This document shows, piece by piece, positions 7,569-31,496 of a DNA stretch of 32,000 bases (positions are counted from its first letter, which is position 1; each line of letters begins with the position of its first letter). The translations under genes were made by a program, and so were the position numbers. Origin of the DNA: an archaeon (GTDB taxonomy: Archaea; Iainarchaeota; Iainarchaeia; Iainarchaeales; JANQMZ01); contig JANQMZ010000007.1 in NCBI GenBank assembly GCA_028279805.1, forward strand, positions 60,001-92,000. Direction: 5' to 3'. The notes under the pieces were generated by a model. It saw only the letters and a list, made by a program, of their open reading frames with translations. It had not been told where the DNA came from and ran no database searches.

Positions 7569-8528
7569 ATGCATATTAAAAACAAATCAGTTGTTGTTAC
7601 CGGTGGAGCCGGTTTTATTGGCTCTCATCTGGTTGATTCTCTTGTTAGAGAAAAACCTGAAAAAATAACTGTGCTTTCAAATTTTTTTTTAGGCTCTCCG
7701 AATAATTTAAAAAATTCTTTTAATGAAATGCCCGGCCTTGAAATTAAAAAGCTTGATGTTTCGCATGAAACTGATGTTAAAAATTTTTTTAAAAAAAACA
7801 ATGTTGATATTGTTTTTAATCTGGCTGTAATTCCTTTGCTTGTTTCTCTTGAAAATCCTAAATGGTGCATGGAACAAAATATTTCCATAACCACAAATAT
7901 TTGTGAAGCAATGCGTGAAAATTTTTTTGAAAAACTTGTTCATTTTTCTTCATCTGAAGCTTATGGTTCTGCTTTAAATGTTCCGATGTCTGAATCTCAT
8001 CCTTTAAATCCTGAAACTCCTTATGCTGCAAGCAAAGCGGCATCGGATCATATTGCTTTGTCTTATCACAGAACTTTTGATTTGAATATTTCGGTTGTCA
8101 GGCCTTTTAACAATTATGGTCCGAGACAGAATGCCGGAAAGTTTGCCGGAATTATTCCTTTAATGATTAAAAAAATGTTTGAAAACCAGCCTGTTCATAT
8201 TTTTGGGGATGGAACTCAGACAAGAGATTTTATTTATGTAACTGATACTGCCCAGGGTGCAATAAGTGTTTGCAAAAATGAAAAAACAAATGGCCATATT
8301 ATAAATCTTGGCTCGGGAGAGGAAACATCTGTTAATAAACTGGTTTCAATTCTTGCAAAAGAAACCGGTTATAAAAAAACACCTGTTAAAAAGCCAGCCC
8401 GTCCGGGAGATGTGATGAGGCATCTGGCTGATATAAGCCTTGCAAAAAAACTTATTGATTTTAAGCCTGAAACCGGCATTGAACAGGGTTTAAAAAAAAC
8501 TGTTGCGTGGTATAAGAAAAATCTTTGA
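7569..8528 (+). CDS. NAD-dependent epimerase/dehydratase (extended SDR, UDP/dTDP-sugar 4,6-dehydratase or 4-epimerase-like)
   Basis: 319-aa ORF. VVVTGGAGFIGSHLV, YAASKAA (YxxxK), RPFNNYGPRQ and GDGTQTRDFIYVTD are present. Confidence 0.85.
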   Translation: MHIKNKSVVVTGGAGFIGSHLVDSLVREKPEKITVLSNFFLGSPNNLKNSFNEMPGLEIKKLDVSHETDVKNFFKKNNVDIVFNLAVIPLLVSLENPKWCMEQNISITTNICEAMRENFFEKLVHFSSSEAYGSALNVPMSESHPLNPETPYAASKAASDHIALSYHRTFDLNISVVRPFNNYGPRQNAGKFAGIIPLMIKKMFENQPVHIFGDGTQTRDFIYVTDTAQGAISVCKNEKTNGHIINLGSGEETSVNKLVSILAKETGYKKTPVKKPARPGDVMRHLADISLAKKLIDFKPETGIEQGLKKTVAWYKKNL

Positions 8529-8571
8529 ACTTTTAAACAGTTTATTGTTAAATTTTGACAGGGTATTGGTA

Positions 8572-9990
8572 ATGATTTCTTTTTATCTTCAAAAAAATCC
8601 TGTTTCGAGGGAAATAAAACAATTGTTGAAAATAGCTGCGTCGGATTATTCTGAGAATAAAAAATATGATGTTGTTATTGCTGATAAAATTCCAAAAAAT
8701 CAAAATTTTAAAGCACTGGTTTTGGTTAAAAAAAATTTAAATTTTAATTCTGATATTCCTATTCTTGAAACAGATTTGGTTGATTTGTGTCAAAAAGGGC
8801 TTAATTTTAACGCAGTAGATTACACCAAACCTTTAATTGAAGAAGAACTTTTTTTAATTAAAGAATTTTGTGCTAAAAACACTGTTTTGGCTGAAATTCC
8901 TCCTGTTTCTTTTGGCAAAACTTTTTTTGTTGTTCTTTCTCATGATATTGACCATTTGTCTTTGCATGGAATGCATTTTGAAAGAAGTGCTGATAAAAAT
9001 CTTGACAACAGAACTTTTTTTGAAAAAATAAAATCTTTTCTTGCAAACCATAAAAGTTTGCATGATAAAACTTTGGGATTTTTTGCTCTTTTTAAAGGAG
9101 GAATCTGGAAAGACATTAATAATTTTGAAAAAATTAACAATATTGAAAAAAATTTTAATTTATCTTCAACTTATTTTTTTGCTCCTTTTAAGCAAAAAGG
9201 AATTTCTTATGATTTAAAAAATGCAGAAAATCATATCAATTTTGTTAAAAAAAACAATAATGAAATTGCCTGCCATTCAGTTTCGGGGCAGAACAGTTTG
9301 AAGCATGCTGTGAATGAAAAAAAAATTGTTGAAAAATTTGCACCTGTAAAAGGAAACCGGGTGCATCATCTTGATTTTGAAAGCACAGATTTTTTAAAAA
9401 ATTTTGAAAAAGCCGGCTATTTGTATGATTCTTCTCTGGGTTTGAACAAAAAAACAGGGTTTCCCTGCCTTACAACCCAACCTTTTGTTCCTTTAAATTG
9501 TGAAAAATTAATGGAGTTTCCTTTAAATGTTCAGGATGGTTCTCTGTTCAAATCGAATGCAATGAATTTGTCTTTTCAAAAAGCAAAAAAACATTGTTTT
9601 AATTTTATGACTTTTTTTCAAAAATTTGGAGGGCAGCTTGTTTTAGACTGGCATAATGTTTTTTTTAATCCGCAGTACAGTTCCTGGGAAAAACTTTACA
9701 TTGAGTTAATAAAAAAATCATTTGAATTAAATGCTTTGCCGGTAACCATGTCTGAATGTTTTGAATTTTTTAATGAGAGAAGAAATTCTAAAATTTTGCA
9801 TAACAAAAAATCAAACTCTAATCTTTTTAGTTTTAAAACGGTTCCTAAAAATAAAATGTTTTTAAGAATCTGGAAGAATAAAAATCTTGTTATAAATGCT
9901 GAAAATGAGTTAAATATTTCTGAATCAAAAAAATGTGTTGACATTCTTTGTTCAGATAAAACACTTGTAACAGTGTCATCAAAAAATTAA
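8572..9990 (+). CDS. Hypothetical protein with a divergent CE4-like (polysaccharide deacetylase / 7-stranded barrel) C-terminal domain
   Basis: The track ORF starts at 8503 and overlaps the upstream gene, so I prefer the ATG at 8572 (MISFYLQ...). CE4-like order of motifs: VVLSHDIDH, TYFFAPF, EIACHSVSG, GNRVHHLDF, GYLYDSSLG, MEFPLN. The assignment is by eye only. Confidence 0.45.
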   Translation: MISFYLQKNPVSREIKQLLKIAASDYSENKKYDVVIADKIPKNQNFKALVLVKKNLNFNSDIPILETDLVDLCQKGLNFNAVDYTKPLIEEELFLIKEFCAKNTVLAEIPPVSFGKTFFVVLSHDIDHLSLHGMHFERSADKNLDNRTFFEKIKSFLANHKSLHDKTLGFFALFKGGIWKDINNFEKINNIEKNFNLSSTYFFAPFKQKGISYDLKNAENHINFVKKNNNEIACHSVSGQNSLKHAVNEKKIVEKFAPVKGNRVHHLDFESTDFLKNFEKAGYLYDSSLGLNKKTGFPCLTTQPFVPLNCEKLMEFPLNVQDGSLFKSNAMNLSFQKAKKHCFNFMTFFQKFGGQLVLDWHNVFFNPQYSSWEKLYIELIKKSFELNALPVTMSECFEFFNERRNSKILHNKKSNSNLFSFKTVPKNKMFLRIWKNKNLVINAENELNISESKKCVDILCSDKTLVTVSSKN

Positions 9991-10974: not shown

Positions 10975-12645
10975 TCATCCCAAATGTTTAATTAGTTCTT
11001 CTCCGTTAAGATTTTTGCTTTTTTTATTAATTGCTTGTAAAAGCATTTTTTGAGCTTTTGTGTTCATTGGCTCTGAAACACTGATAAAAGGGCTGTTTGT
11101 TAAAATATTTACATGAACATGTGTTTTGTCTCCGCCGGTTAGTTTTAAATGGGTTAAAAAACATATAACTGATTCAGGATTTTCAAACATTGTTTTAATG
11201 GTTTTAAAAATTTTTTTGGAATAATCTGAATCAGGGTTTGAACGTAAAAACCGGTCAATCCATATGCATGGAACTTCAACGGTTTTTGACAGTTTTAATT
11301 CATTGTTTTCAATTTTTAAAAGACTGTAAGGCCGGGGAATTGTAATTTTTTCTTCATCAATTAAATCTGATGAATCAATTTTGAAATGTTTTTCAACATG
11401 CTGTAAAACTTTTTCGGTTCGTGTAAGTGAAGGATATCTTACAATAGCTGACTGTTTTAATCCTTTTGTTAAATTAAACCATTCTGCAATGGTTTTTTTG
11501 ATAAACTCTTGGGACATTTTGTGTTTTTTTTCTTCAAATGCTTTAACTTTTTCAGGGTAATTGAACAAAAGAACTGATTTTAAATAAAGAAAAAATCTTT
11601 TGCTAATTAGTGAAATCAAATCTTTTGAAAGTGTTAACGGTTTTGAAACTTCTCCGCTGTAACCACCATAAGACCATTTTTGATGGTTTGACAAATGGGA
11701 GCAAAGGCTGTGTTTTTCTGAAAATTTTAAACTGTTTTTATTTTTTTCAATGTTTATTTTTTCAAATCCGGCGTAATCTTTTCCTTTTTTTATTTCATCT
11801 CCGCTTACCATAAACAGGCCTTTTACTTTTTCTTTATTTAATCTTTTAACAGTTTTTTTTATTGCATTTTCAAAAAGCATGTCATTCCTGTTTTTTGCAC
11901 CTGTAATGTCAGTACATTCTCTTTTTTTGTTGTTAAAATAAAAGCTCTGGCATTCGCAGTCTATTGTAAACAAAGAAACTGGTTTTTTTTCCTTTGGTTT
12001 ATAATGCCCCAATGTGTGTAAAACAAATTTCATTAATAGCTGAATGTTTGAAATATTTGATGCATCTGCTTCGGCAAAATTATGCAAATAAATATTTTTA
12101 ACATATTCAAATGCAATGTTTCCGTTAATGTAATAAATATTTTTTGTTTTTTTTGTAAAAAAACCAGAACCGTTTTCAAATTTTAAAATTTTTTTACCCC
12201 TGCCAAATTTGAACGCTTTTGGAATGTCAACATATAAGTTTTTTGGCACAATTTTTGCATTTTTTTCAGGATAAATTTTGGTTTTTTTTAAATCACGTTT
12301 TTTTGTTTCAATTTTCATTTGTTTTAATTGTTTTTTTTCAATCAGGGAACTTAAAAGAATGCATATTTTTGCTTTGGTGTTTTGTTCTAAAATTTTTAAA
12401 GTGTTTTCTGAAAAATTAACCGCAAAAAAAACATCAATATTTTTATGTTTGTTTAAATTTTTTTCTTTAATCAGCTGAGCAGATAGTTTTGCAGAATCAA
12501 ATATTAATAATTGCAACCCAAAAACTGTTAATATTTCTTTTTTTGATGGCTTGTCTGAGTAAACTATTCCGATTTTTTTTGTTTTGGAAAAATTTATTTG
12601 TTTTAACATTTTTTCTGTAATTTTAATATCTGAAAATTGTTTCAT
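10975..12645 (-). CDS. Large hypothetical protein with a divergent CE4-like deacetylase domain (paralogous in layout to 8572-9990)
   Basis: The track start at 12696 would overlap the upstream gene by 41 nt. The ATG at 12645 (MKQFSD...) is preceded by GAGTTGA + 5 nt. Motif order: LFTIDCEC, GLFMVSGDE, CSHLSNHQ (H-x3-H), IVRYPSLT, HFKIDSSD, TVEVPC. Confidence 0.4.
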   Translation of the reverse strand: MKQFSDIKITEKMLKQINFSKTKKIGIVYSDKPSKKEILTVFGLQLLIFDSAKLSAQLIKEKNLNKHKNIDVFFAVNFSENTLKILEQNTKAKICILLSSLIEKKQLKQMKIETKKRDLKKTKIYPEKNAKIVPKNLYVDIPKAFKFGRGKKILKFENGSGFFTKKTKNIYYINGNIAFEYVKNIYLHNFAEADASNISNIQLLMKFVLHTLGHYKPKEKKPVSLFTIDCECQSFYFNNKKRECTDITGAKNRNDMLFENAIKKTVKRLNKEKVKGLFMVSGDEIKKGKDYAGFEKINIEKNKNSLKFSEKHSLCSHLSNHQKWSYGGYSGEVSKPLTLSKDLISLISKRFFLYLKSVLLFNYPEKVKAFEEKKHKMSQEFIKKTIAEWFNLTKGLKQSAIVRYPSLTRTEKVLQHVEKHFKIDSSDLIDEEKITIPRPYSLLKIENNELKLSKTVEVPCIWIDRFLRSNPDSDYSKKIFKTIKTMFENPESVICFLTHLKLTGGDKTHVHVNILTNSPFISVSEPMNTKAQKMLLQAINKKSKNLNGEELIKHLG

Positions 12646-12655
12646 AAATTTCAAC

Positions 12656-13729
12656 TCATAATAATCCAAATAATGAAATTTTATCTTTTCCTGCAATTTT
12701 AACCGGAAAATCGTTGTATAATCTGATTAACCAGAAAGCAAAAGCCTTCCTCAAAGGCTTGTAAACCTTTATTTCTCTTGGTATTTCGTATAATTCTCCT
12801 CCGAATGTTTTTTTGAATCTGAACATTCCCAGTGATTTTTTGTCAGTAAAACCGATTGGCTTTATTCTTACTCCGCCCAAATCCAGCCATTTGAATTTGT
12901 TTTCTTTTCCAAATTTTATTAAATTCCATATCAAAAAATCATTTGTTTTTAAATGTAAAAAATCTGGATCATAAACGGTGTTCCAGTAATGAATAACTTT
13001 TTTGTAAGCTATCTGTATGCTTCCTCCAATTATTTTGTTTTGATGTTTTATTATGAAAAAATTTGCCAGTTTTTTTTTACTTAAATCAAATAATTGTTTT
13101 TGATAATCAAAATCTTCAACTCCCAGCCCCGTTCTTTTACACATTTTTTCATGCAACTTGTAATATGTTTCAATATCTTTTTCGGTTCCTTTTTCAAATT
13201 TTAAATTGTTTTTTTCAGAAATTTTTATTGATTTTCTGCATTTTCTGTTCATTTCCTTCTGAATTTTTTCCAGTGGTTTTTCTAAATCCAGTAAAAAAGT
13301 ATGTTCAGGACTTTTTTGAAAGCCATGCTCTTCCAGCCAGTAATCTGCTTTTTTTCCGACAAGTTTCGGGGAATTAATATTTGCCCTGTTTACAAAAAAA
13401 TGTGCGTTTGTTTTTTTTGCAATTTCATCAATTTTTTCAAGAATTGCTTTAATTATTTTTTCCTTGTTTTTTTGCTTAACACATAATCCTGCGTTGCCTA
13501 TTCCGGGACTATCTAAAAAATTTACAAACCTGTTTTTGAAATGAACAAGGGGAATTATTCCCACAATTTTTTCATTTTCTTTTGCTGTTAAGTACATTGG
13601 TTTTAATCCGAAGAACGGCATTAATTTTTCCCATTCTGTTCTGTGCATAGCCCAACCATAATCATTTGAATCTGTAAAATCATTCCATTCTTTGGAATCT
13701 GTTTCTTTCATTAACTCCACTTTAATCAT
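12656..13729 (-). CDS. FemAB-like / GNAT-fold aminoacyl- or acyl-transferase
   Basis: 357-aa ORF. The C-terminal half, GGSIQIAYKKVIHYWNTVYDPDFLHLKTNDFLIWNLIKFGKENKFKWLDLGGV, matches the FemABX / BioF2-like acetyltransferase pattern. Its start forms an ATGA overlap with the upstream gene. Confidence 0.65.
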   Translation of the reverse strand: MIKVELMKETDSKEWNDFTDSNDYGWAMHRTEWEKLMPFFGLKPMYLTAKENEKIVGIIPLVHFKNRFVNFLDSPGIGNAGLCVKQKNKEKIIKAILEKIDEIAKKTNAHFFVNRANINSPKLVGKKADYWLEEHGFQKSPEHTFLLDLEKPLEKIQKEMNRKCRKSIKISEKNNLKFEKGTEKDIETYYKLHEKMCKRTGLGVEDFDYQKQLFDLSKKKLANFFIIKHQNKIIGGSIQIAYKKVIHYWNTVYDPDFLHLKTNDFLIWNLIKFGKENKFKWLDLGGVRIKPIGFTDKKSLGMFRFKKTFGGELYEIPREIKVYKPLRKAFAFWLIRLYNDFPVKIAGKDKISLFGLL

Positions 13730-19261: not shown

Positions 19262-19398
19262 TGCAAAAACCTGTGCTTTCAAGAACGCAAATACTGTTCA
19301 GAATCCACGTTTGCAGCCCGAACGACATTTTTTGCGAGCACAGGCGAGCAAGCACTGCCACCGGCGTGCGTTTGCAGTCTGAACACAGGCTTTTTGCA
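19262..19398. ncRNA. Candidate structured RNA / 3'-UTR element (GC-rich, long-range stem); strand and identity unknown
   Basis: 5' TGCAAAAACCTGTG (19262-19275) pairs with CACAGG-C-TTTTTGCA (19384-19398), giving 14 bp with one bulged C. There is an inner 8-bp pairing of TGTTCAGA (19295-19302) with TCTGAACA (19378-19385), and a small hairpin CAC-T-GCC ACC GGC GTG (19353-19368). A direct repeat CGTTTGCAG[C/T]C[C/T]GAAC occurs at 19308-19323 and 19369-19384. The local G+C is clearly above the surroundings. Confidence 0.35.
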
Positions 19399-19406
19399 CC
19401 AAAATC

Positions 19407-19476: not shown

Positions 19477-19665
19477 ATGTCAAAAGAAAAAGTAACGATT
19501 TCAATCCCAAAACATCTTTATAATGAAATAAAGAAAGAAATTGAAAATACCGGCTTTTCTTCACCTTCTGAGTGGATTAAATATGTTTTAAGACAGGCTC
19601 TGGCTGGCGCTAAAAAAAGCAATAATGCCATTATTTCTTTTCCATATCTTGGTGAATCGGATTAA
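19477..19665 (+). CDS. Ribbon-helix-helix (CopG/NikR-N-like) DNA-binding protein
   Basis: 62-aa ORF. KVTISIPKHLYNEIKKEIENTGFSSPSEWIKYVLRQAL fits the beta-strand / helix / helix RHH pattern. Confidence 0.7.
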   Translation: MSKEKVTISIPKHLYNEIKKEIENTGFSSPSEWIKYVLRQALAGAKKSNNAIISFPYLGESD

Positions 19666-19678
19666 AACAGGTGTTTAA

Positions 19679-21469
19679 ATGTCTCAAAAAGTTGCGGTTA
19701 TCGGTATTGACGGAGCCAAGCCTGAAACAATTGAAAGACTGATGAAAAAAGGGCTTTTGCCTAATCTGAGCAATTTGAAAGATTCCGGAACATATGGCCA
19801 TTTACAGACAATTCATGCTTCCCAGACTCCTATTGCCTGGTCAAGCATTATGACAGGCCTTGATATCGGCAAACACGGCGTTTATGATTATCTTATCAGA
19901 GACCCAAAATCTATGCAGTTAAAATTTGGAATGAATGATGAAAGATTCACTCCAAAAGGAACAGAATATGTAAATTTAAGAAAAGGAAAACCTGTTTGGG
20001 AAATTTTAGGAGAAAATGAAAAAAAAGGAATCAGTTTGTTTGTTCCGATGGCTTTTCCGGCTAAAAATTTTAACGGTTTTATTGTTGCAGGAATGGGAAT
20101 TCCTGACTTAAGAGGAGCGCAGGGCGTCCCTGCAATTTATTCAAATGAATCTGATTTTGAAGAAAAAGAAGATTTTTATAAATTAAACTTTTCAGATAAC
20201 AAAACAGTTTCAAAAATTTTTGCATCAAAAGATTTAAGCAAAGAATTTGAAATTGAAATTCTTGAAAATAAAATTTCAATAAAAATTGAAAATGTTAATG
20301 AAATAATTTTAAAACAAAATGAATGGAGTGAATGGATTGAAACTTTTTTTGAACAGGATGACAAAAAAATTGAATCTTTTTTCAGATTCAAATTATTAAA
20401 ATTTAGTAATTCTGAAATAAGATTATATTTGTCTCCTGTAATGTATTCGCCAAAGCAAAATTTTATTCCGGTTGTTCAGCCCAAGGAACTAGGAAAAGAA
20501 TTGATTGAAAATGCCGGAATGTTTAAAGCATTAAGTTTTGAATCTGATGTTTATGGCTTAAAGCAAAAAATAATTGATGAAGAAACATGGATTGAGGACA
20601 TGAAATATACTTTTGATAAAAGAATTCAGGTTTCTGATTATTTGTTAAAAAACAAGCCCTGGAATTTTTTCATGGCTGACTATATGCCTGTTGACCGTGT
20701 CCAGCATTTGTTCTGGAGAGCGATTGACAAAAAACATCCTTTGCATGATGAAAGCAAACAATATGAAAATACTATTGATGAAGTTTATGCTTTTACTGAC
20801 CAAAAAATAGGTGAATTGTTAAAAAATTTTACCCAGGATGACCTGGTTTTTGTTGTTTCAGACCATGGTTTTTGCAGTTACAGAAAAAATGTTGAATTGA
20901 ACAAAATTTTAATGGAAAAAGGTTATCTGCATTTAAAGGATGAAAAAAAATCAGAATCTTTGAATGATATTGACTGGTCCAAAACAAAGGCATATGCTTT
21001 GGGTTTTGGGGCGATTTACATCAATTTGCAGGGCAGAGAGCTTTATGGTGTTGTGGAACAAAAAGACTATGATTTAATGCGGGAGCAAATAATTGAAGAT
21101 TTAACAGGTTTTTCTTTTCAAAACGAACTTGTTTTGAAAAATGTGTTAAAAAGAGAAGAAGCTTTTTCCGGAGGCTCACTTGAAGAATCACCTGACCTGG
21201 TTCCCTTGTATGCTGACGGTTTCCGTTCAGGCTCGGATTCAACTTTGGGCAAAGTTTCGTCAAAAGAAATTGTTCATGATAATTTAAGCAAATGGTCTGC
21301 TGACCATGTGGGCCCGTTTGATTTTTCTGACAATTTCGGAATTATTTTCTCTAACCAGCAGATTAATGTTTCAAATGCAAGTGTTTTTGACATTGCAGTT
21401 TCTTCACTGGATTTTTTTAATCTGAAAAAAGAAAATGAAATGGTGGGAAAATCTTTGCTTTTGAGGTGA
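19679..21469 (+). CDS. Alkaline-phosphatase-superfamily protein, type I phosphodiesterase/nucleotide pyrophosphatase-like (AlkP1)
   Basis: 596-aa ORF. VAVIGIDGAKPETIERLMKKGLLPNL sits at the extreme N-terminus, so there is no signal peptide. Nucleophile region SQTPIAWSSIMTG. Motifs DRVQHLFW and VVSDHGF. AGGTG Shine-Dalgarno sequence. Confidence 0.8.
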   Translation: MSQKVAVIGIDGAKPETIERLMKKGLLPNLSNLKDSGTYGHLQTIHASQTPIAWSSIMTGLDIGKHGVYDYLIRDPKSMQLKFGMNDERFTPKGTEYVNLRKGKPVWEILGENEKKGISLFVPMAFPAKNFNGFIVAGMGIPDLRGAQGVPAIYSNESDFEEKEDFYKLNFSDNKTVSKIFASKDLSKEFEIEILENKISIKIENVNEIILKQNEWSEWIETFFEQDDKKIESFFRFKLLKFSNSEIRLYLSPVMYSPKQNFIPVVQPKELGKELIENAGMFKALSFESDVYGLKQKIIDEETWIEDMKYTFDKRIQVSDYLLKNKPWNFFMADYMPVDRVQHLFWRAIDKKHPLHDESKQYENTIDEVYAFTDQKIGELLKNFTQDDLVFVVSDHGFCSYRKNVELNKILMEKGYLHLKDEKKSESLNDIDWSKTKAYALGFGAIYINLQGRELYGVVEQKDYDLMREQIIEDLTGFSFQNELVLKNVLKREEAFSGGSLEESPDLVPLYADGFRSGSDSTLGKVSSKEIVHDNLSKWSADHVGPFDFSDNFGIIFSNQQINVSNASVFDIAVSSLDFFNLKKENEMVGKSLLLR

Positions 21470-21473
21470 ACAA

Positions 21474-21593
21474 ATGGTTAAAAAAAATTTAAAAAACAAA
21501 AATAAAAAAAATTCAAAAACAAAAAAGAAAAACAATAAAGAAAAAGCTAATGACATTGTTGAAAGGAGATTAAAAGCATTTGGCTATATTTAG
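21474..21593 (+). CDS. 39-aa Lys/Asn-rich micro-protein ending RLKAFGYI (not in the supplied ORF track)
   Basis: ATG at 21474 lies 4 nt after GAGGTGA (21463-21469), which also contains the AlkP1 stop. Translation: MVKKNLKNKNKKNSKTKKKNNKEKANDIVERRLKAFGYI. Its TAG stop overlaps the AGGAGGT Shine-Dalgarno sequence of the next gene. Its C-terminus matches the C-termini of the proteins at 28441-30042 and 30129-31496. Confidence 0.55.
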   Translation: MVKKNLKNKNKKNSKTKKKNNKEKANDIVERRLKAFGYI

Positions 21594-21607
21594 GAGGTTG
21601 ATAAAAA

Positions 21608-22678
21608 ATGCATTTTTATGAGTCAACAATAATTGTTTCAAAAGACGGTTTGCAGGTGAAAAGTTATGCAAACGAACACCCGGAGGGATATGTTATTGCA
21701 AAACCAAAATATATTCCCACAACAAAAATCAAATCCGAGGAATTGCCTTTAAGGCCTTTGCTTGGAGAAGAAGTTAACCGGTTTGATTACTGGATCAGTG
21801 ATGAAGGGTTAAAAGACTATGTTTCAAAATTTAAAGAAACATATCCTGAATATTATTATGAATCCGATTTGTATAACACCTGGTTTTTTGTTATTCCAAA
21901 AAACCGGATAAAGGATGCTCCGGACGGGCGAGCTGGTGTTAAAAAAATTGTTAACATGGGTGAAGATGAAATGGATGAATATTTGTCCTTAACCCAGAAA
22001 TTTTTAAACCTGTTACATGATTCCGGTTTGTCGTATGATGATATGGGTGTAACCAATTCCACTTTACTGGGAACTTATACTTACGGGCGTTCGGACATTG
22101 ACATGATAATTTACGGAAAACAAAATTACTGGGACATAATGGAATACATGAAAGATGCAAAACACGAGCTTTTAAGATGGAGAAATCTGGATGAATGGAA
22201 AAAATATTATGCCACTTACAATGCAGGCTTAAATTTTAATGAAAAAGAATTCATCTGGCAGGCCCAAAGAAAGACAGCTGACGGCTTATTTGACAAAACA
22301 GTGTTTTCCATTTTTGGAGTTGAAGAACCCGGAGAACAATATGTCAAATGGGGGGAAGAAAAATGCACGCCTCTTGGCCTGGCTACAATTGAAGGTGTTG
22401 TGGAAAACAATTTCCATGCAGCTGTAAGGCCCGGTTATTATGAATTAAAAAATTCAAAAGTTATTGACGGCCCGAACCAAAAAGTTGACCTGGTTGTGAC
22501 ATATGCAAGAGATTTTATGTTACAGGCTTTTAATGGTGAAACAATTCAGGCACGAGGATTGCTTGAAAAAGTTGAATCTTTAAACGGAAAAAAAGATGAT
22601 TATTACAGGCTGGCCATTGGCTACTTTGATTCTTATCTGACAAGAAAAGGAGAAGAATTCATAAAAGTAAAACATTAG
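21608..22678 (+). CDS. Predicted Pol-beta-superfamily nucleotidyltransferase (archaeal COG1665-like), function unknown
   Basis: 356-aa ORF with a strong AGGAGGT Shine-Dalgarno sequence (21592-21598). The NTase signature is LLGTYTYGRSDIDMIIYG (G[ST]...D-x-D). The N-terminal block STIIVSKDGLQVKSYANEHPEGYVIAKPKYIP resembles, from memory only, the archaeal 'predicted nucleotidyltransferase' family. Confidence 0.5.
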   Translation: MHFYESTIIVSKDGLQVKSYANEHPEGYVIAKPKYIPTTKIKSEELPLRPLLGEEVNRFDYWISDEGLKDYVSKFKETYPEYYYESDLYNTWFFVIPKNRIKDAPDGRAGVKKIVNMGEDEMDEYLSLTQKFLNLLHDSGLSYDDMGVTNSTLLGTYTYGRSDIDMIIYGKQNYWDIMEYMKDAKHELLRWRNLDEWKKYYATYNAGLNFNEKEFIWQAQRKTADGLFDKTVFSIFGVEEPGEQYVKWGEEKCTPLGLATIEGVVENNFHAAVRPGYYELKNSKVIDGPNQKVDLVVTYARDFMLQAFNGETIQARGLLEKVESLNGKKDDYYRLAIGYFDSYLTRKGEEFIKVKH

Positions 22679-24070: not shown

Positions 24071-25477
24071 ATGGCAAGAATTTTTGTTTTGGGTTTGGAT
24101 GGTGCGGCACCGGAACTTGTTTTTAAAAAATGGAGAAAACATTTGCCTAACATTTCAGAATTAATGCAGCAAGGCTCTTATTGCACAACCGATTCAACAA
24201 TTCCTCCGTCAACAATTATTGCATGGAATTCTTTTTGTTCCGGTTATGATGCGGGACAGCTTGGAGTATATGCTTATACCAAGCGGGGTAAAAAAAGCCT
24301 GGATGATAAAATTTTTGTCAATTCAACTCATGTTAAAAAACCGTTAATCTGGGATGTTTTGTCAAAAAAGGGCAAAAAATGCAACGTAATACATGTTCCT
24401 TTGACTTATCCTGTGCGCAAAATTAATGGCAGAATGGTTTCAGGTTTTTTGACTCCCGGACTTGAATTTGAATCAGTTTATCCAAAATCTTTTAAAAAAG
24501 AAATTAAAAAAATTTCAAAAAATTACATGTTTGATGTTGGGGAATTTTTGTCCTATAAAAGCATGAATCCGAAAAAACTTTTGGAAAAAGTTTATCAGAT
24601 GACTGAAATGAATTTCAAATTAATAAAAAAACTTGTGTTAAAAAAAGACTGGGATTTTTTTATGTCGGTAATCATCGGCACTGACAGGCTTAATCATTTA
24701 TTTTGGCATTATTTTGACCAGAAACATGTTTTATTCAAAAAAGGCTCCCGTTATAAAAATGCTTTAAGGGATTATTTCAAATTTGTTGATAAAAACCTTG
24801 GAAAAATAAGAAAAATTTTGCCAAAAGACACTGTTCTGGTTGTTGCATCTGACCATGGAATGGACCGAATGGATGCAAAAATAAATGTAAATGACTGGTT
24901 AATAAAAAAAGGTTATCTTGTTTTAAAAAAAGATTTTGCTCAGAAAGCAAAAAAAGGCCCGGTTAAAATAAAACTTTCAGGAATAGATTTTTCAAAAACA
25001 AAAGCTTACAGTATAGGAAGTTATCAGGCAAGAATTTATATTAATCTGAAAGGAAGGGATAACGAGGGAGTTGTTTTAAAAAAAGATTTTAATAAAATAC
25101 GCAGAGAACTTGAAGAAAAACTGTCAAAAATAAGGGGAATAAAGGGCCAAAAACTTAATACAAAGTTTTTCAAACCTGAACAAGTGTATAAAAAATTTGA
25201 TTCTGAAGCTCCTGATTTGATTGTTTATTTTGACAATCTTATTTATGGTTCCAATGATGAAGTGGGAAACAGGTCATTATATTCAATGGAAACAGTTGTG
25301 GGAAAAACAATGGCCGGACATGCTCCCAAAGGCATTTTTGTAATTCATGGCCCAAATATCAAAAAAAGGGGTTTTATTGGTGAAAAAAATATTTTAAACG
25401 TGGCTCCGACGTTTTATAAAATTTTAAAAATTAAAAAGCCTAAAGGCTTGCAGGCAAAAAATTTGGATATTTTTTAA
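24071..25477 (+). CDS. Alkaline-phosphatase-superfamily protein, type I phosphodiesterase/nucleotide pyrophosphatase-like (AlkP2)
   Basis: The track start at 23969 runs through the proS 3' end. The ATG at 24071 is preceded by AAGGTG and gives MARIFVLGLDGAAPELV. Nucleophile region PPSTIIAWNSFCSG. Motifs DRLNHLFW and VASDHGM. Confidence 0.8.
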   Translation: MARIFVLGLDGAAPELVFKKWRKHLPNISELMQQGSYCTTDSTIPPSTIIAWNSFCSGYDAGQLGVYAYTKRGKKSLDDKIFVNSTHVKKPLIWDVLSKKGKKCNVIHVPLTYPVRKINGRMVSGFLTPGLEFESVYPKSFKKEIKKISKNYMFDVGEFLSYKSMNPKKLLEKVYQMTEMNFKLIKKLVLKKDWDFFMSVIIGTDRLNHLFWHYFDQKHVLFKKGSRYKNALRDYFKFVDKNLGKIRKILPKDTVLVVASDHGMDRMDAKINVNDWLIKKGYLVLKKDFAQKAKKGPVKIKLSGIDFSKTKAYSIGSYQARIYINLKGRDNEGVVLKKDFNKIRRELEEKLSKIRGIKGQKLNTKFFKPEQVYKKFDSEAPDLIVYFDNLIYGSNDEVGNRSLYSMETVVGKTMAGHAPKGIFVIHGPNIKKRGFIGEKNILNVAPTFYKILKIKKPKGLQAKNLDIF

Positions 25478-27138
25478 TTGGACATTTTGTAAACTTTTAT
25501 TCCGTTTTCTTGAAACAAAATCTGTTCATTTAACTCAGAACAATTTGTTAGAAAATAGTCAGCATCTTTTTGTGAATATTTTAACACTTCTTTGCCTTTA
25601 TTGTCAAATATTTTTCTCTGCCCGTTTTCATATTTGAAATTAGCAGCCCATGAGAACTGAAAAATTTTTGGAAACTGTATTAATCTGCTCCTGTTTTCTC
25701 CAGAATCAGGTACGTCAAAAAAAGAATTGTATGGAAAGGGTTGATAGTCATATTTTGGAAGTTTTGTAAAGCATTCATCTATTCCTAAAACAAATTCTCC
25801 CGGTAATGAATTTATTTTTTCGCCAATTGAATAAAAGCCAACCGGAAAAGTTGGCTGATTTTTTATTACAGGCGTATAACCTGTAAAGTAAATAAAATGC
25901 CAGAATAACAATCCGAAAACAAGCAATGTTGCAATTGTTTTAACCGGTTTTTTCATTGTGTTTATTTTTTCAGAAATTTGTGTAAAACCAATTGCAGCGA
26001 TTATTGAAAGGGGAACAATTGCGAGGTAAAAATATTTTACGGACATGTAAAGCTGATGAATCTGAACTGGAAAATTGTTTGTAAACATGTTTAAAAAGAA
26101 TCGTGCGAACACTGAGAAAATCATCAAGGCAAATGCTCCGAAAAATAATAATAATTTTGAATTGTTTTCCTGTTTTTTGTTTTTAAAAATGTAAATTATT
26201 CCGGGGATTGCAAGAAGAAAAACGGCAAGTGAAAAAGGGTTTGGCGTAAAAATGCCTCCTCTTATTAATCCTCCTTCCGCTATATAAGTTGCATAATGAA
26301 TTGCTAATCCGAAAACCTGCGGAATAACGCTTAAAAGAGCTAAAAATGGCAGTATAAAAATTTTGAAATTTTTTTGTTTTAAAAAATTGAATGCTAAAAA
26401 AATTGTGAAAATCAGAAAAGCGTGAGGGTAAGCTGTTAATCCTATTAGTGATAAAAAGTATGGTTTTTTTTCTTTTGTTGAATAAAAATAAAAACCGCTT
26501 ATTAAAAAAAGCATTGTGAAAACCTGTGGTAAATGCCCTGCAAGTAAAACCCATAGGCTTGTAATTGTAAACGCAAAAATGAATGAACTGATTATTGCTG
26601 TTTTTTCATTGTAAAATTTTTTTGCAAACAAAAAAACTCCTATTGTTGTAAAAATGAGCAAAAGAATTGGCAAAATAGTATTAATCATGTAAGCGTTTCC
26701 GATTATTGAATGAATTGAGGATGTTGTTGCATAATAATTCTGAGGATAACTGTGATCCAGATTAAAAGGAAAACTTTCTTCTGCTGATAAAAAACCATTT
26801 TCTTCTGTTACAATATTGTGATTTGCAGATGTTAATCTTGTGTGTTTAGAATGGTTCATTAAATCTGAAGCGGTTACCGGAAAAATAAAATTTGGAAAAA
26901 TAACATACAAAAAAAGCAGAACAAATACTCCTATTATTAATGCAAAAATTGTTTGTGTTTTTGGTGTAATTGTTTCTTTTTTTGTTTTTTTTAATATAAA
27001 TCCTGTGATTATTCCTGAAATCAAAATATTTGCAACAGTAGTATAAGAATAAATCATTCCCAGATATCCCAGCCATAATGCTATCAGTGAAAATATTGCC
27101 AGAAATGACACAAATCCTGTGAACACTTTTTTTATCAT
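25474..27138 (-). CDS. Polytopic membrane protein with a C-terminal soluble domain; possible GT-C-like glycosyltransferase or glycan polymerase
   Basis: 554-aa ORF. There are at least 10 hydrophobic spans over residues 1-420, followed by a roughly 130-aa hydrophilic tail. I see no WWDxG (AglB/STT3) motif. It is translationally coupled (ATGA) to the Wzx-like gene. Confidence 0.35.
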   Translation of the reverse strand: MIKKVFTGFVSFLAIFSLIALWLGYLGMIYSYTTVANILISGIITGFILKKTKKETITPKTQTIFALIIGVFVLLFLYVIFPNFIFPVTASDLMNHSKHTRLTSANHNIVTEENGFLSAEESFPFNLDHSYPQNYYATTSSIHSIIGNAYMINTILPILLLIFTTIGVFLFAKKFYNEKTAIISSFIFAFTITSLWVLLAGHLPQVFTMLFLISGFYFYSTKEKKPYFLSLIGLTAYPHAFLIFTIFLAFNFLKQKNFKIFILPFLALLSVIPQVFGLAIHYATYIAEGGLIRGGIFTPNPFSLAVFLLAIPGIIYIFKNKKQENNSKLLLFFGAFALMIFSVFARFFLNMFTNNFPVQIHQLYMSVKYFYLAIVPLSIIAAIGFTQISEKINTMKKPVKTIATLLVFGLLFWHFIYFTGYTPVIKNQPTFPVGFYSIGEKINSLPGEFVLGIDECFTKLPKYDYQPFPYNSFFDVPDSGENRSRLIQFPKIFQFSWAANFKYENGQRKIFDNKGKEVLKYSQKDADYFLTNCSELNEQILFQENGIKVYKMSN

Positions 27139-28440: not shown

Positions 28441-30042
28441 TTACCCCAGATAACCCAAGCCTTTTAACCTGTTCTGAAGAGCTTCCTGTTGTTTTTGTGA
28501 TAAATCAATTTCTTTTTTTTCTTTTAATTTGTAGTCTTTTGTTTCAATTTTTTGTTTTTTAAACTCATCTTCAAATGCTTCTGAAATAATCTGTCCGTCC
28601 ATGTTTTTTTCAATTTTTAAATTCATTAAAAACAAAATTGTGGGAGCGATGTCCACAAGTTTTTTTCTTTCAAGTTCAATTTCTTTTTTTATTTTTGGTC
28701 CGTGCATTGTAAAAATTCCGACCTGCCTATGATCTCCTGAAGTTGTAACGGATTCTGTTACAATTTTGTTTGTTGTTTCAAAAGCGGATGAAATCATGTC
28801 ACTTTCGTTTGCTGGAACCACATACAAATCGGGAGCATCTTCAAGGCTTTTTCCGGAATAAACTTGTTCTTTTTCAAAAACCGTTTTAATCAGCTTTTCA
28901 CCGGTTTTGGGGTCTTTTAAGCTTAAAAGCTCTTTTTTTAATTTTTTTCTTATCTCGCTGTAATTGTTTTCATTTACCGGCCCTTCTTTGTTTAAAAAAA
29001 GTTGTCCCATGTGCCTCATAAAATATGCCTGTGTGTTTTTCCAGTCAACATTTTCAAATGACAAAAAACTTTGCTGTTTTATTTTTTCTCTTGCCTGTGC
29101 CGGAACTTTTTTTATTAAAAAATCAATTTTGAAAAATTTTAAAATTTTTATAACATTTTCAATTGTAAATCCTTTTTTTCTCATTGCAAGTTTTGCCTGG
29201 TTTTTCATTTTTAAATATCCTTTTTCTATTAACCAGTTGTTTAAATACATTAACCTGTAATTTGCTCCGAAACCATGGTCTGATAAAATAATAACATGGT
29301 CAAATTCGTTTTCATGTTTTTTTATAAAATTTCCCATAAGTTCATCTATTTTTGAATAAAAATTTGGTATAAAATTTTTAAATTCATCATCCTCTTTTGT
29401 ATGATTTGGATGTTTTTCATCATAATGTTTCCAGAAATTATGCTGAAAAGGATCTGTTGAGTGAACCATTACAAAAAAGAAATCCGGTTTGTGTTTTTCA
29501 ATTAATTTTGTTGCATAATCCAAACGTGTTTTTTCAACATTAACCGCTTCTTTAAAAAATTCTTCTTCTTTTCCTTTTTTAAACTGGGAACATTTGATTT
29601 TATATTCTCCCAATTCTTTTTCAAAATCCTGAATTAAATTTTTGGGATAAAATTCTGCTTTTTTGCTGGGAGTCAAAAGGCCTGTTACAACAAAACCGTT
29701 AACCTTTGCAGGCGGGTATGTCAGGGGAACATTCATTATTCCCACTTTTTTTTCTTCCTGACTCAATATTTCCTGTAATGTGATTGACTTTATGTAAGTT
29801 GAGTTTACTTTTTTTTCACCGTCTTTTCTTGAAAAATCAAAAATTCCGTGTTTTCCCGGATTGCATCCTGTTTGAAAAGTTGTCCAAGCAGCACTTGTTA
29901 TTGGCGGAATGCATGATTCCAGTTCACATTTTACCCCTTTTTTGAAAAATTTTTCCATATTTGGCAACAAGCCTTTTTTTATTGCAGGTTTTACAACATC
30001 AAAAGTCCAGGCATCCAGCCCGATAACCATTACTTTTCCCAT
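28441..30042 (-). CDS. Alkaline-phosphatase-superfamily protein, type I phosphodiesterase/nucleotide pyrophosphatase-like (AlkP3), C-terminal RLKGLGYLG tail
   Basis: 533-aa ORF. MGKVMVIGLDAWTF at the N-terminus. Nucleophile region PPITSAAWTTFQTG. Motifs DPFQHNFW and ILSDHGF. A K/E-rich linker precedes ...QNRLKGLGYLG at the C-terminus. Confidence 0.8.
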   Translation of the reverse strand: MGKVMVIGLDAWTFDVVKPAIKKGLLPNMEKFFKKGVKCELESCIPPITSAAWTTFQTGCNPGKHGIFDFSRKDGEKKVNSTYIKSITLQEILSQEEKKVGIMNVPLTYPPAKVNGFVVTGLLTPSKKAEFYPKNLIQDFEKELGEYKIKCSQFKKGKEEEFFKEAVNVEKTRLDYATKLIEKHKPDFFFVMVHSTDPFQHNFWKHYDEKHPNHTKEDDEFKNFIPNFYSKIDELMGNFIKKHENEFDHVIILSDHGFGANYRLMYLNNWLIEKGYLKMKNQAKLAMRKKGFTIENVIKILKFFKIDFLIKKVPAQAREKIKQQSFLSFENVDWKNTQAYFMRHMGQLFLNKEGPVNENNYSEIRKKLKKELLSLKDPKTGEKLIKTVFEKEQVYSGKSLEDAPDLYVVPANESDMISSAFETTNKIVTESVTTSGDHRQVGIFTMHGPKIKKEIELERKKLVDIAPTILFLMNLKIEKNMDGQIISEAFEDEFKKQKIETKDYKLKEKKEIDLSQKQQEALQNRLKGLGYLG

Positions 30043-30128: not shown

Positions 30129-31496
30129 TTAAAGATAACCCATTCCTTTCATCTGTTCTTTTGTTTTATCAGTAATTTCAACTTGTATTTCTTTATCAGG
30201 CAGCTTGTTATTTTTAATCAAATCATTAATCATTTTTTCAAATTCTGCAACTTTTTCAGGTTTTTCAGCTGCAAGATTTTTTAATTCACCCGGATCTTGT
30301 TTTAAATTAAAAAGTTTTACATCTTGTGTTACAGTTTTTGTTAATTTTTTTTCCTTTGACAAATTAAAAAACTGTTTAACATACCCAAAAATGTTTTTTA
30401 TAAACTTTAACGAAAAAACTTTTTTTGCTTCAAAATATTTTTTAATATACTTCCATTCATTTGTTCTCACAGAACGCATTAACTTAAAATGCTGCTGAAA
30501 TTCTGTTATGCCAACCAAGTCAAATTCTTTTTCTCCTCGAATCATCGGCATTAAATTTTTTCCGTGAAATTTTGTTTTTTCTTTTATTTCTGTTAAACTT
30601 AAAACAGTGGGCAGCAAATCAATATGCCTCACCAACGGCTTTATTTTTTTCCCGGCCGGAATCAAACCAGGGCATCTTATTATTATAGGAACTTTTACAA
30701 CCTCATCAAACATATACCATAACCCGTGTCCCAACTGCTTGCTTTCTTCTTTCCTGTCAAATAATATTTCACCATTATCTGATGTGATTATGACAATTGT
30801 GTTGTCAAGCAGATTCATTTTTTTTAATTCTTCAAATAAAATTTTTAATTTTTCATCAGCATCTTTTATTCCCGCATCATATAAATCTTTTAATGCTTCA
30901 ATATCCTCCTTTGAAAACATTCCCTTGCTTGCAAATTCCTTTAATTTCGGAATGTCCGTTGCAGCTGTTTTTCTGTACCTGTTTTTTAAAGTTTTTTTTG
31001 ACAAATATTTTTCAGGCGGATCAAAAGGATAATGAATATCAAAACAGTGAACAAAAGCAAACCATTTTTCATTTTTATGCTGTTTAACCCATTCCAAAAA
31101 CTGTTCTGTTTTAATGTCAAGATTTCTTCCCTCATCATTGTAAACATCAAATCCTCGCTCCCATCCGAAATCTTTAGCCATTATTACTCCGCCAGTAAAA
31201 GCACCTGTTTTGTATCCTGCGTTTTTCATCATTTCAGCCCAGGTTTTATATTTTGGTAAAAGATAAAAATTTTTTTTATCCGCAGTATGCATAAAAGCGT
31301 TTAAACCGGTAAACAAAGCCATATGTGCCGGAGCAGTCCAGTTTCCCTGTGTTATCGCTGTTTCAAACAATGTTCCCTGTGAGGCAATTTTATCAATAAA
31401 AGGAGTTGTTTTTTTATGGTAACCATAACAACCCATATGATTCTGCCTTAAAGAATCAAGCAAAATTACTAACACATTTTTAGCCATTTTTTTCAC
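30129..31496 (-). CDS. Sulfatase-fold (AlkP superfamily) protein lacking the C/S-x-P-x-R signature; probably not a true sulfatase
   Basis: 455-aa ORF from a GTG at 31496. An alternative start is the ATG at 31487 (MAKNVLVILLDSLR). The sulfatase-like core includes ITSDNGE. The signature position reads T-A-P-A-H-MALFTG (31305-31337). The C-terminus is ...KEQMKGMGYL. Confidence 0.75.
   Translation of the reverse strand: MKKMAKNVLVILLDSLRQNHMGCYGYHKKTTPFIDKIASQGTLFETAITQGNWTAPAHMALFTGLNAFMHTADKKNFYLLPKYKTWAEMMKNAGYKTGAFTGGVIMAKDFGWERGFDVYNDEGRNLDIKTEQFLEWVKQHKNEKWFAFVHCFDIHYPFDPPEKYLSKKTLKNRYRKTAATDIPKLKEFASKGMFSKEDIEALKDLYDAGIKDADEKLKILFEELKKMNLLDNTIVIITSDNGEILFDRKEESKQLGHGLWYMFDEVVKVPIIIRCPGLIPAGKKIKPLVRHIDLLPTVLSLTEIKEKTKFHGKNLMPMIRGEKEFDLVGITEFQQHFKLMRSVRTNEWKYIKKYFEAKKVFSLKFIKNIFGYVKQFFNLSKEKKLTKTVTQDVKLFNLKQDPGELKNLAAEKPEKVAEFEKMINDLIKNNKLPDKEIQVEITDKTKEQMKGMGYL

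Follow-up and report, generated by a model that had tools for sequence, protein, structure and literature searches.

A stretch of 32,000 nucleotides from an archaeon of the Iainarchaeota (GenBank assembly GCA_028279805.1, contig JANQMZ010000007.1, positions 60,001 to 92,000 of the forward strand; hereafter the window, with positions counted from its first nucleotide) carries a surface-glycan island that includes glycosyltransferases, epimerases, aminotransferases and a flippase. Within this region are the genes for three AlkP-superfamily proteins (AlkP1, AlkP2 and AlkP3), a sulfatase-like protein and a micro-open reading frame (micro-ORF), which is housed in the 138-nt spacer between AlkP1 and the gene starting at 21608 (Table 1). 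The micro-protein ends in a short sequence, termed here the LGY tail, that also closes AlkP3 and the sulfatase-like protein. A preliminary description made from the DNA alone had reported the micro-ORF, the AlkP1 stop codon, the GAGGTGA sequence before the start codon, a TGA at 21462-64 that shuts the tail frame, the ends of AlkP3 and the sulfatase-like protein and the tail-less AlkP2, and each of these details was confirmed from the sequence and the list of open reading frames. It had also called the micro-ORF unlisted, which was correct for the list then in use and incorrect for the public annotation, where the identical 39-amino acid product is already a called gene (P0241).

Table 1. Features of the window, with the evidence or details for each
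Feature	Position	Strand	Details
Intergenic element	19262-19405		5' of the ribbon-helix-helix gene
62-amino acid ribbon-helix-helix protein	19477-19665	+	Directly 5' of AlkP1; custom N-domain hidden Markov model, E=5.6e-16
AlkP1	19679-21469	+	596 amino acids, PF01663; tail-less; ends ...GKSLLLR, stop TGA 21467-69
Shine-Dalgarno-like GAGGTGA	21463-21469	+	Covers last Arg codon and TGA stop of AlkP1; 4 nt 5' of micro-ORF ATG
Micro-ORF	21474-21593	+	ATG 21474, TAG 21591-93; 39 amino acids; product MVKKNLKNKNKKNSKTKKKNNKEKANDIVERRLKAFGYI
Lys/Asn-rich low-complexity spacer of micro-ORF	21477-21548	+	Codons 2-25; sequence, length and net charge vary among aligned orthologues
Conserved tail core of micro-ORF, NDIVERRLKAFGYI	21549-21590	+	dN/dS of last 17 codons; profile score
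Shine-Dalgarno AGGAGGT of next gene	21592-21598	+	Overlaps TAG of micro-ORF
356-amino acid protein	21608-22678	+	Family unknown
AlkP2	24071-25477	+	PF01663; tail-less; ends ...KNLDIF; listed reading frame begins at TTG 23969
AlkP3	28441-30042	-	533 amino acids, PF01663; tail in cis; ends ...QNRLKGLGYLG
AlkP3 tail (last 20 residues), LSQKQQEALQNRLKGLGYLG	28444-28503	-	Homologue alignment; AlphaFold2
Sulfatase-like (sulfatase-fold) protein	30129-31496	-	PF00884; tail in cis; ends ...EQMKGMGYL
Tail of sulfatase-like protein, TDKTKEQMKGMGYL	30132-30173	-	List of open reading frames; profile scoring
495-amino acid protein	8503-9990		No Pfam match
573-amino acid protein	10975-12696		No Pfam match
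554-amino acid protein	25474-27138		No Pfam match; polytopic membrane protein by eye

The GAGGTGA sequence was the second-longest anti-Shine-Dalgarno match among the 28 gene starts of the window, the longest being the AGGAGGT of the next gene. About half of these starts had a match of at least 4 nt, with Shine-Dalgarno-like strings of AGGT, GGTG or AGGTGA. Translation of the micro-ORF is probably coupled to that of AlkP1, and no terminator-like site was found between AlkP1, the micro-ORF and the next gene. Neither Rfam families nor tRNAs were detected in the window, thus the spacer after AlkP1 is not an RNA gene, and the micro-protein matched no Pfam or NCBIfam model. The core of the micro-protein reads N-D-I-V-E-R-R-L-K-A-F-G-Y-I and carries the pattern Φ-x-x-R-L-[KR]-x-[LFM]-G-Y-Φ no more than 4 residues from the C-terminus, in the form IVERRLKAFGYI followed by the stop codon. 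On a profile of the tail the window copy scored 26.8 bits as one of the training sequences, and an independent copy from an orthologous locus (L008) scored 19.4 bits. The micro-protein consists of a low-complexity spacer, which is variable, and a single free-standing copy of the LGY tail behind it.

Relatives of AlkP1 were collected with a conceptual fusion of AlkP1 and the tail as the query, and the best 120 matches were listed. None of the 120 carries a tail fused to AlkP1. The 119 listed relatives that were complete at the C-terminus all end in ...DGKSLL or its equivalent and have no tail; among them are 14 orthologues (581-600 amino acids, 45-63% identity) that end in ...DGKSLL[ER]. AlkP1 is therefore complete as it stands, since its listed relatives end at the same point, and the micro-ORF is a free-standing copy of a mobile module rather than a detached AlkP1 C-terminus. 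The earlier view that the tail had been split off next to a third paralogue does not hold for a family in which these relatives are uniformly tail-less.

Scans of genome and metagenome contigs for AlkP1 relatives gave two loci each, and gene contexts were taken from exact-protein look-ups. A micro-ORF was found directly 3' of AlkP1 orthologues (51-63% identity) in four further assemblies, represented by loci L001, L011, L008 and L006, which answers the question of whether it is conserved in related genomes. The closest AlkP1 orthologue (P0002, 63% identity), from a Candidatus Iainarchaeum / Diapherotrites metagenome-assembled genome, is followed after 5 nt by a called 52-amino acid gene that reads MTEKKK...EKENDLVKRRLKALGYI. 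The L011 product also has 52 amino acids and ends in ...RDNDLVKRRLKALGYI, that of L008 ends in ...NQNEIIKKRLEAFGYL with ATA where the others have ATG, and in L006 the start (MIATKKDKKTKK...) is all that can be seen before the contig ends. At the junction with AlkP1, L006 and L008 have AGGTGA-N4-ATG (or ATA), and L001 and L011 have GGAGTGA-N5-ATG. The orthologues have thus kept both coupling signals, namely a Shine-Dalgarno sequence within the 3' end of AlkP1 and an interval of 4-5 nt. At about position 1815 of L008 no other canonical in-frame start accompanies the ATA, and a non-canonical start, reinitiation or an error in this metagenome assembly would each account for it.

These junctions bear on whether the tail might be the C-terminus of AlkP1 itself, joined to it in truth and separated in the assembly by a sequencing or assembly error, or joined by a programmed +1 frameshift at AGG-TGA. 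The AlkP1 stop and the micro-ORF start are just 4 nt apart, and AGG-TGA beside a Shine-Dalgarno-like sequence loosely resembles the frameshift site of prfB. However, two separate frames were present in five independent assemblies and the offset between them varied by locus: L001 and L011 have an offset of -1, and the window, L006 and L008 one of +1. No frameshift could fuse the frames of L006 or L008, where a TAA in the tail frame lies 3' of the AlkP1 stop and immediately 5' of the start codon. Together with the tail-less ends of all 119 complete relatives, the comparative data refute this reading and leave it a probability close to nil, and on these sequence comparisons we consider it excluded. 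The preliminary description was accordingly right to treat the micro-ORF as a separate gene and not as a frameshift or assembly artefact.

Substitutions in the last 17 codons of the micro-ORF orthologues amounted to 0.31-0.70 per synonymous site (pS) and 0.06-0.34 per non-synonymous site (pN). When the window was compared with L001 and L011 the ratio of non-synonymous to synonymous rates (dN/dS) was about 0.2, and with L008 it was 0.16; the overall range was 0.16-0.5. Synonymous changes such as AGG AGA to CGA CGT and GGC to GGT were seen within the kept tail. The spacers differed between orthologues in sequence, charge and length (22-38 amino acids), with a hand-counted net charge of about +14 in the window and about +1 in L001. 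As a gene the micro-ORF is small but genuine, and its coding sequence is conserved.

In the more distant loci L002, L003, L007 and L009 the position after the AlkP1 orthologue is taken by cysD (1zun_A, E=1.7e-68), the product of which ends in the tail-like ...MMQKLRSLGYM, and L001 has a Sat-type ATP sulfurylase in place of cysD. An origin of the micro-ORF from cysD is thus possible, and the micro-ORF could be a non-functional relic such as the 3' end of a deleted cysD. We consider a relic very unlikely, as it would lose its Shine-Dalgarno sequence, its intact frame and a tail dN/dS of about 0.2 among orthologous loci as diverged as these, with AlkP1 identities of only 51-63%. Archaeal CysD ends scored 12-14 bits on the tail profile compared with 19 bits for the independent L008 micro-ORF, the CysD end of the bacterium P. 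syringae did not fit it (-2.8 bits), and the universal CysD end is ...KKRQGYF. The origin of the micro-ORF and its present function are in any case distinct questions, and a literature search on CysD found nothing about its C-terminus. The cysD gene that follows the AlkP1 orthologue of L009 (4800-6830) encodes 676 amino acids with an intein inside the PAPS_reduct domain (matches to Intein_splicing and LAGLIDADG).

The micro-ORF might alternatively serve only as a coupling device or upstream reading frame that hands ribosomes from AlkP1 to the 356-amino acid gene, in which case the peptide would be irrelevant. The overlap of its stop codon with the AGGAGGT of the next gene fits such a role, as does L008, which has the same gene order and a Shine-Dalgarno sequence directly after the micro-ORF stop. 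Against this, purifying selection acts on the last 14 residues of the peptide, which match a motif that recurs at the C-termini of other proteins, and L001 keeps the micro-ORF although the next gene is convergent. A pure coupling role was therefore judged highly improbable.

The three AlkP proteins share one common core, and the AlkP3 tail is a 49-residue addition beyond the end of AlkP2. The likelihood of a chance resemblance was assessed with the pattern [LMIVF][KRQ]xxG[YF][ILVMF]x{0,1}-stop in 1185 six-frame stop-delimited segments and in 200 mononucleotide shuffles. Exactly three of the 1185 segments matched, namely the micro-ORF, AlkP3 and the sulfatase-like protein, compared with a mean of 0.22 in the shuffles, none of which reached three, and with an expectation of 0.0065 over the 28 real protein termini. 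Conservation of the terminal motif in homologues, which the preliminary description had left to be examined, was borne out by the best 120 homologues of AlkP3 (33-37% identity), 118 of which end in ...LGY plus 1-5 residues. These were bacterial and archaeal, from Anaerolineae, Omnitrophica, Hodarchaeales and other lineages, and their usual end was [FY][ST]xEEEExΦxERL[RK]xLGYΦ(G). L526, L529, G530 and Y531 of AlkP3 fell in near-invariant columns, as did many columns of the catalytic core. Relatives of the sulfatase-like protein end in ...ERLRGMGYL (L001) and ...NQLKGLGYF (L009). In the PDB AlkP3 had no close solved relative, the only matches being distant NPP, sulfatase and PhnA folds, and no solved chain carries an LGY tail.

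A 21-position profile of the tail, built from 59 tails (alignment A5), was searched against 1.84 billion cluster representatives and matched 398 clusters at E<=1e-3. Carrier classes were assigned for the best 150 of the 398 matches. The commonest carriers were small ribbon-helix-helix (RHH) proteins, with 87 of the best 150 having an RHH-like N-domain followed by the tail in 60-85 amino acids (consensus KVTIEIPKELYEKIKKRIEESGFKSVEEYIEYVLREVL). Met-initiated stand-alone proteins of at most 52 amino acids with no other domain made up about 21, AlkP C-termini about 11, 'double motif' ends with an APS-kinase-like C-terminal helix (..AKLEELGYV) plus an extra tail 10, a sulfatase fragment one and a transmembrane segment with a tail one, and five were false positives (PG_binding_1 repeats, two actinobacterial repeat proteins and one eukaryote-like repeat protein). 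The consensus of the module was usually [FY]-[ST]-x-E-E-E-E-x-Φ-x-E-R-L-[RK]-x-L-G-Y-Φ, the stretch before the core being acidic (SxEEEE) in most carriers. Some of the small Met-initiated proteins were K/E-rich like the L001 micro-protein and some had an N-terminal amphipathic helix. The sharing of a terminal motif by three proteins of the window, as first noticed, is thus real, but the motif is not private to them and belongs to a widespread module found mostly on small RHH proteins.

The LGY tail is therefore a mobile C-terminal module of about 20 residues, both modular and widespread. Pfam and NCBIfam contain no model for the tail or for the RHH-tail family, which had only weak NikR and RHH_1 matches. 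Literature searches did not find the motif strings in a relevant context and returned nothing relevant for RHH proteins with sulfate activation or for COG3379. The module, the RHH-tail family and the free micro-protein form appear to be undescribed in the searched libraries.

Two further patterns were observed among the profile matches. Those with an APS-kinase-like end included P0248, P0252, P0255, P0257, P0384, P0386 and P0394, ten matches show ..AKLEELGYV, a linker and a full LGY tail, and the APS kinases of L013 (8024-8587) and L010 (2845-3381) end in a tail-like helix, ..KLKELGYIDNSEED. A duplicated C-terminal helix of APS kinase may have given rise to the module. The stand-alone tail proteins P0273, P0316, P0332, P0334 and P0385 have a short amphipathic basic N-terminal helix (MGIFNFFKKRKK, MAFNFLKKLFGKKKK and the like) resembling a membrane-targeting sequence, which suggests that membrane-anchored versions of the tail exist.

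Every small tail gene with a retrieved context had genes of the 3'-phosphoadenosine 5'-phosphosulfate (PAPS) pathway, tail-less PF01663 genes, or both, nearby, and the window micro-ORF itself directly follows AlkP1. A Sat-type ATP sulfurylase and an adenosine 5'-phosphosulfate (APS) kinase lie near the AlkP1 orthologue in L001, and CysD, TauE and CysN do so in L002, L003, L007 and L009. The order in L010 is an RHH-tail gene, TauE, Sat, a sulfotransferase, APS kinase and a second RHH-tail gene, and in L012 an RHH-tail gene is followed by a PAPS_reduct gene. L013-15 have an RHH-tail gene, Sat, a 458-amino acid tail-less AlkP and an APS kinase with the ending given above; AlkP2 and the tail-less AlkP of L013 share 36% identity across the full length of AlkP2. 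In L016-18 an RHH-tail gene precedes a GT2 glycosyltransferase and a 517-amino acid tail-less AlkP, and in L019 a CysN-like fragment and a 245-amino acid tail-less AlkP are followed 23 nt downstream by a 72-amino acid tail protein. At the P0389 locus the gene of a 40-amino acid K/E-rich tail protein is convergent with a 499-amino acid PF01663 gene. The module is thereby genomically linked to PF01663 enzymes and PAPS-synthesis genes.

An AlphaFold2 model of AlkP3, computed as a single chain with 91 homologues as the alignment, had a mean predicted local distance difference test score (pLDDT) of 94 and a predicted template modelling score (pTM) of 0.93, with an NPP/PhnA-like core. The C-terminal extension was modelled with pLDDT values of 94, 93, 87 and 81 over residues 491-530, including a helix at 516-528 (pLDDT 81-87) followed by GLGYLG. 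The cis tail of AlkP3 is therefore predicted to be an ordered helix and not a floppy tag. This prediction, and the acidic stretch before the core in most carriers, disagree with the flexible basic linker that had been described in front of the tail.

The LGY tail would be an amphipathic helix with a Gly cap at its end, followed by Tyr and a hydrophobic residue, and this helix would most likely dock on a protein surface. A protein-docking role is the most economical reading, as was first suggested, and we give an even chance to the tail being a docking helix that acts in cis or in trans. AlkP3-family and sulfatase-like proteins have the tail in cis. Beside tail-less AlkP proteins (AlkP1, AlkP2 and their relatives) it is carried by a neighbouring micro-protein or RHH DNA-binding protein that would either deliver the helix in trans or compete with it. 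The recurrence of RHH and micro-proteins of the same consensus beside tail-less AlkP genes suggests such delivery or competition, and the micro-protein may thus act in trans on AlkP1. The tail is near-invariant across bacteria and archaea, which implies that its binding surface travels with the carriers and would be either the AlkP-fold enzyme or other tails. The target may accordingly be the AlkP-fold enzyme itself or a shared partner, and a groove of the AlkP fold, as the specific site, is a tentative choice that we consider somewhat unlikely even within the docking reading.

A broader proposal, which we regard as doubtful, is that the tail represents a pathway-wide docking code. Enzymes (AlkP3-type, sulfatase-like, CysD and APS kinase), RHH repressors and micro-proteins would all bind one AlkP-fold groove, by which a sulfate-activation and glycan-modification complex would be assembled and transcription of the cluster tied to free enzyme in an antitoxin-toxin-like manner. 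The micro-protein would then be a stoichiometric, translationally coupled trans-subunit of AlkP1 or a competitor for it. If true, this code would constitute a prokaryotic short-linear-motif network across bacteria and archaea.

Several observations weigh against a docking helix. The acidic [ST]-x-E-E-E-E before the core is absent from the window micro-ORF, which has KEKAND at this place; the L001 micro-protein has a partial match, EDEDAIEKEND. The case for docking of the AlkP3 tail in cis consists of pLDDT values, and an AlphaFold2 chimera of AlkP1 and the micro-protein was returned as one long helix with pLDDT of 47-75, the micro-protein part lacking alignment depth. About eight independent contexts were sampled, and in L020, the sole context examined for an AlkP3 homologue with a cis tail, a GT2 gene and an 869-amino acid protein of unknown function precede the AlkP3 homologue. 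Sulfate-activation genes were absent within 9 kb of it, so that the link to sulfation is not universal.

The same features could be explained by self-association of the tail, for example as antiparallel helices that pair an acidic N-terminal half with a basic C-terminal half. Such pairing would oligomerise RHH repressors and enzymes and leave the micro-protein to cap or modulate them. The charge pattern of EEEE followed by K-x-R-L-R, the hydrophobic residues at every third or fourth position and the existence of tandem 'double-motif' proteins are consistent with this. RHH repressors such as Mnt form tetramers through C-terminal helices, which provides a model for it. The helix is however very short, with about three turns of hydrophobic stripe, the window copy is without the acidic half, and the AlkP3 tail is ordered already in the monomer model, and we consider self-association unlikely.

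A regulatory tag was also considered, in which the tail would be a shared degron or a substrate site (with, for instance, a modified invariant Tyr) and the free micro-protein a decoy. The invariant Tyr and Gly with acidic residues close by would suit this, as would the location of carriers in PAPS-producing loci and the sulfotransferase encoded in L010. On the other hand, no protease, adaptor or tyrosine-modifying enzyme was consistently linked to the tail, a conservation of 20 residues exceeds the need of a degron, and the proposal is purely inferential. We rate it as decidedly improbable.

The principle by which a short terminal peptide wires pathway proteins and a regulator is already known from CysE-CysK, antitoxins, stalk and SSB tails and cargo peptides, and the docking helix can be compared with each of these. 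The RHH-tail carriers resemble RHH type II antitoxins (RelB, ParD, CcdA) in having an RHH domain of about 45 amino acids, a linker and a short C-terminal helix, in being encoded first in the operon and sometimes overlapping the next gene (L009), and in that a tail binding the neighbouring enzyme would give autoregulation of the same type. Their neighbours are however AlkP and PAPS-pathway enzymes with no toxins, the similarity of RelB tails to the profile was insignificant (E=1.4 and 7), and the window micro-ORF, in which the RHH N-domain model had no match, falls outside this class. In the cysteine synthase complex, likewise, a short C-terminal peptide of one sulfur-pathway enzyme (CysE) docks on another (CysK). 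CysE differs in having an invariant terminal Ile and no helix, whereas the LGY tail ends in L, I, V, M or F and may be followed by 0-4 residues, often G or D; there was no CysK-type domain among the window proteins and the tail is not of the CysE class.

The tails of stalk P1/aP1 and SSB proteins share an acidic stretch, a short amphipathic end with Gly and an aromatic residue and the use of one peptide as a common handle, but their sequences are unrelated, order is predicted for the stretch before the tail of AlkP3, and no GTPase partner was consistently found. Encapsulin cargo-loading and microcompartment encapsulation peptides are similar in that one short terminal peptide occurs on several enzymes of a locus; their consensus is different, DNA-binding RHH proteins are implausible as cargo, and the window has no shell or encapsulin gene. 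The first helix of PG_binding_1 (V..LQ.RL..LGY...DG.FG) has the same Φ-x-x-R-L-x-x-L-G-Y and a helix ending in Gly-Tyr. This likeness covers only 11 positions, with the rest of the domain absent and the LGY tail terminal, and the PG_binding_1 repeats that occurred among the profile matches (P0249 and P0253) were taken as false positives.

Other known C-terminal signals were considered and rejected. The HbYX motif of proteasome activators did not fit, as Gly precedes the Tyr and the Tyr lies 2-6 residues from the end, and a PIP-box for PCNA was rejected on sequence logic. Ligands of PDZ domains or of other free-carboxylate receptors were dismissed on the variable trailing residues, a membrane-targeting helix on the usually acidic flank, and an export signal on the range of carriers, among which are DNA-binding proteins and also enzymes that lack a signal peptide.

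The wiring of enzymes, regulators and micro-proteins by a shared short linear motif has been documented extensively for eukaryotes but is rarely recognised in bacteria or archaea. The LGY module recurs on five or more types of protein and marks out a large unnamed family of RHH proteins of 60-85 amino acids, and it also exists as a free micro-protein gene. If it is a docking helix, it would offer a handle on what PF01663-type AlkP proteins do in gene clusters for PAPS synthesis and surface glycans, those of DPANN archaea among them, as well as on the regulation of these clusters, and it would give the conserved 39-amino acid micro-protein a concrete role.

The 62-amino acid RHH protein encoded upstream of AlkP1 has an N-domain in common with the RHH-tail family and weak NikR and RHH_1 matches. 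It ends in the variant sequence ...IISFPYLGESD, and the Φ-x-x-Φ-[G/P]-Y-L pattern in this end points to a tail that has diverged. The gene is kept 5' of AlkP1 in L002 (3322-3513), L003 and L009 (2829-3014), and the variant end, as IIS[FI]PYL[GA], in L002 and L009. The intergenic element 5' of this gene seems richer in G+C than its surroundings, and a 16-nt sequence (CGTTTGCAGYCYGAAC) occurs in it twice as a direct repeat, the copies being 61 nt apart. Folded as RNA the element had an energy of -45.8 kcal/mol (z=-2.4), and there was no Rfam or tRNA match; it may represent a small RNA or an operator at which the RHH protein binds.

Relatives of AlkP1 and AlkP2 were also observed inside PAPS-synthesis operons. 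The listed AlkP2 reading frame would overlap the prolyl-tRNA synthetase gene by 92 nt if begun at the TTG, and the ATG at 24071 (MARIFVLGLDG...) is likely the true start. The sulfatase-like protein has T-A-P-A-H in place of the sulfatase C/S-x-P-x-R, which suggests a Thr nucleophile and a phosphotransferase or other transferase-type activity, not hydrolysis of sulfate esters. The 356-amino acid protein had no match in Pfam, NCBIfam or PDB sequences; it also directly follows the micro-ORF in L008 (1941-3017), and its GRSDIDMIIYG motif is nucleotidyltransferase-like by eye. The 495-, 573- and 554-amino acid proteins are candidates for the glycan polymerase or transferase machinery that the island would encode.

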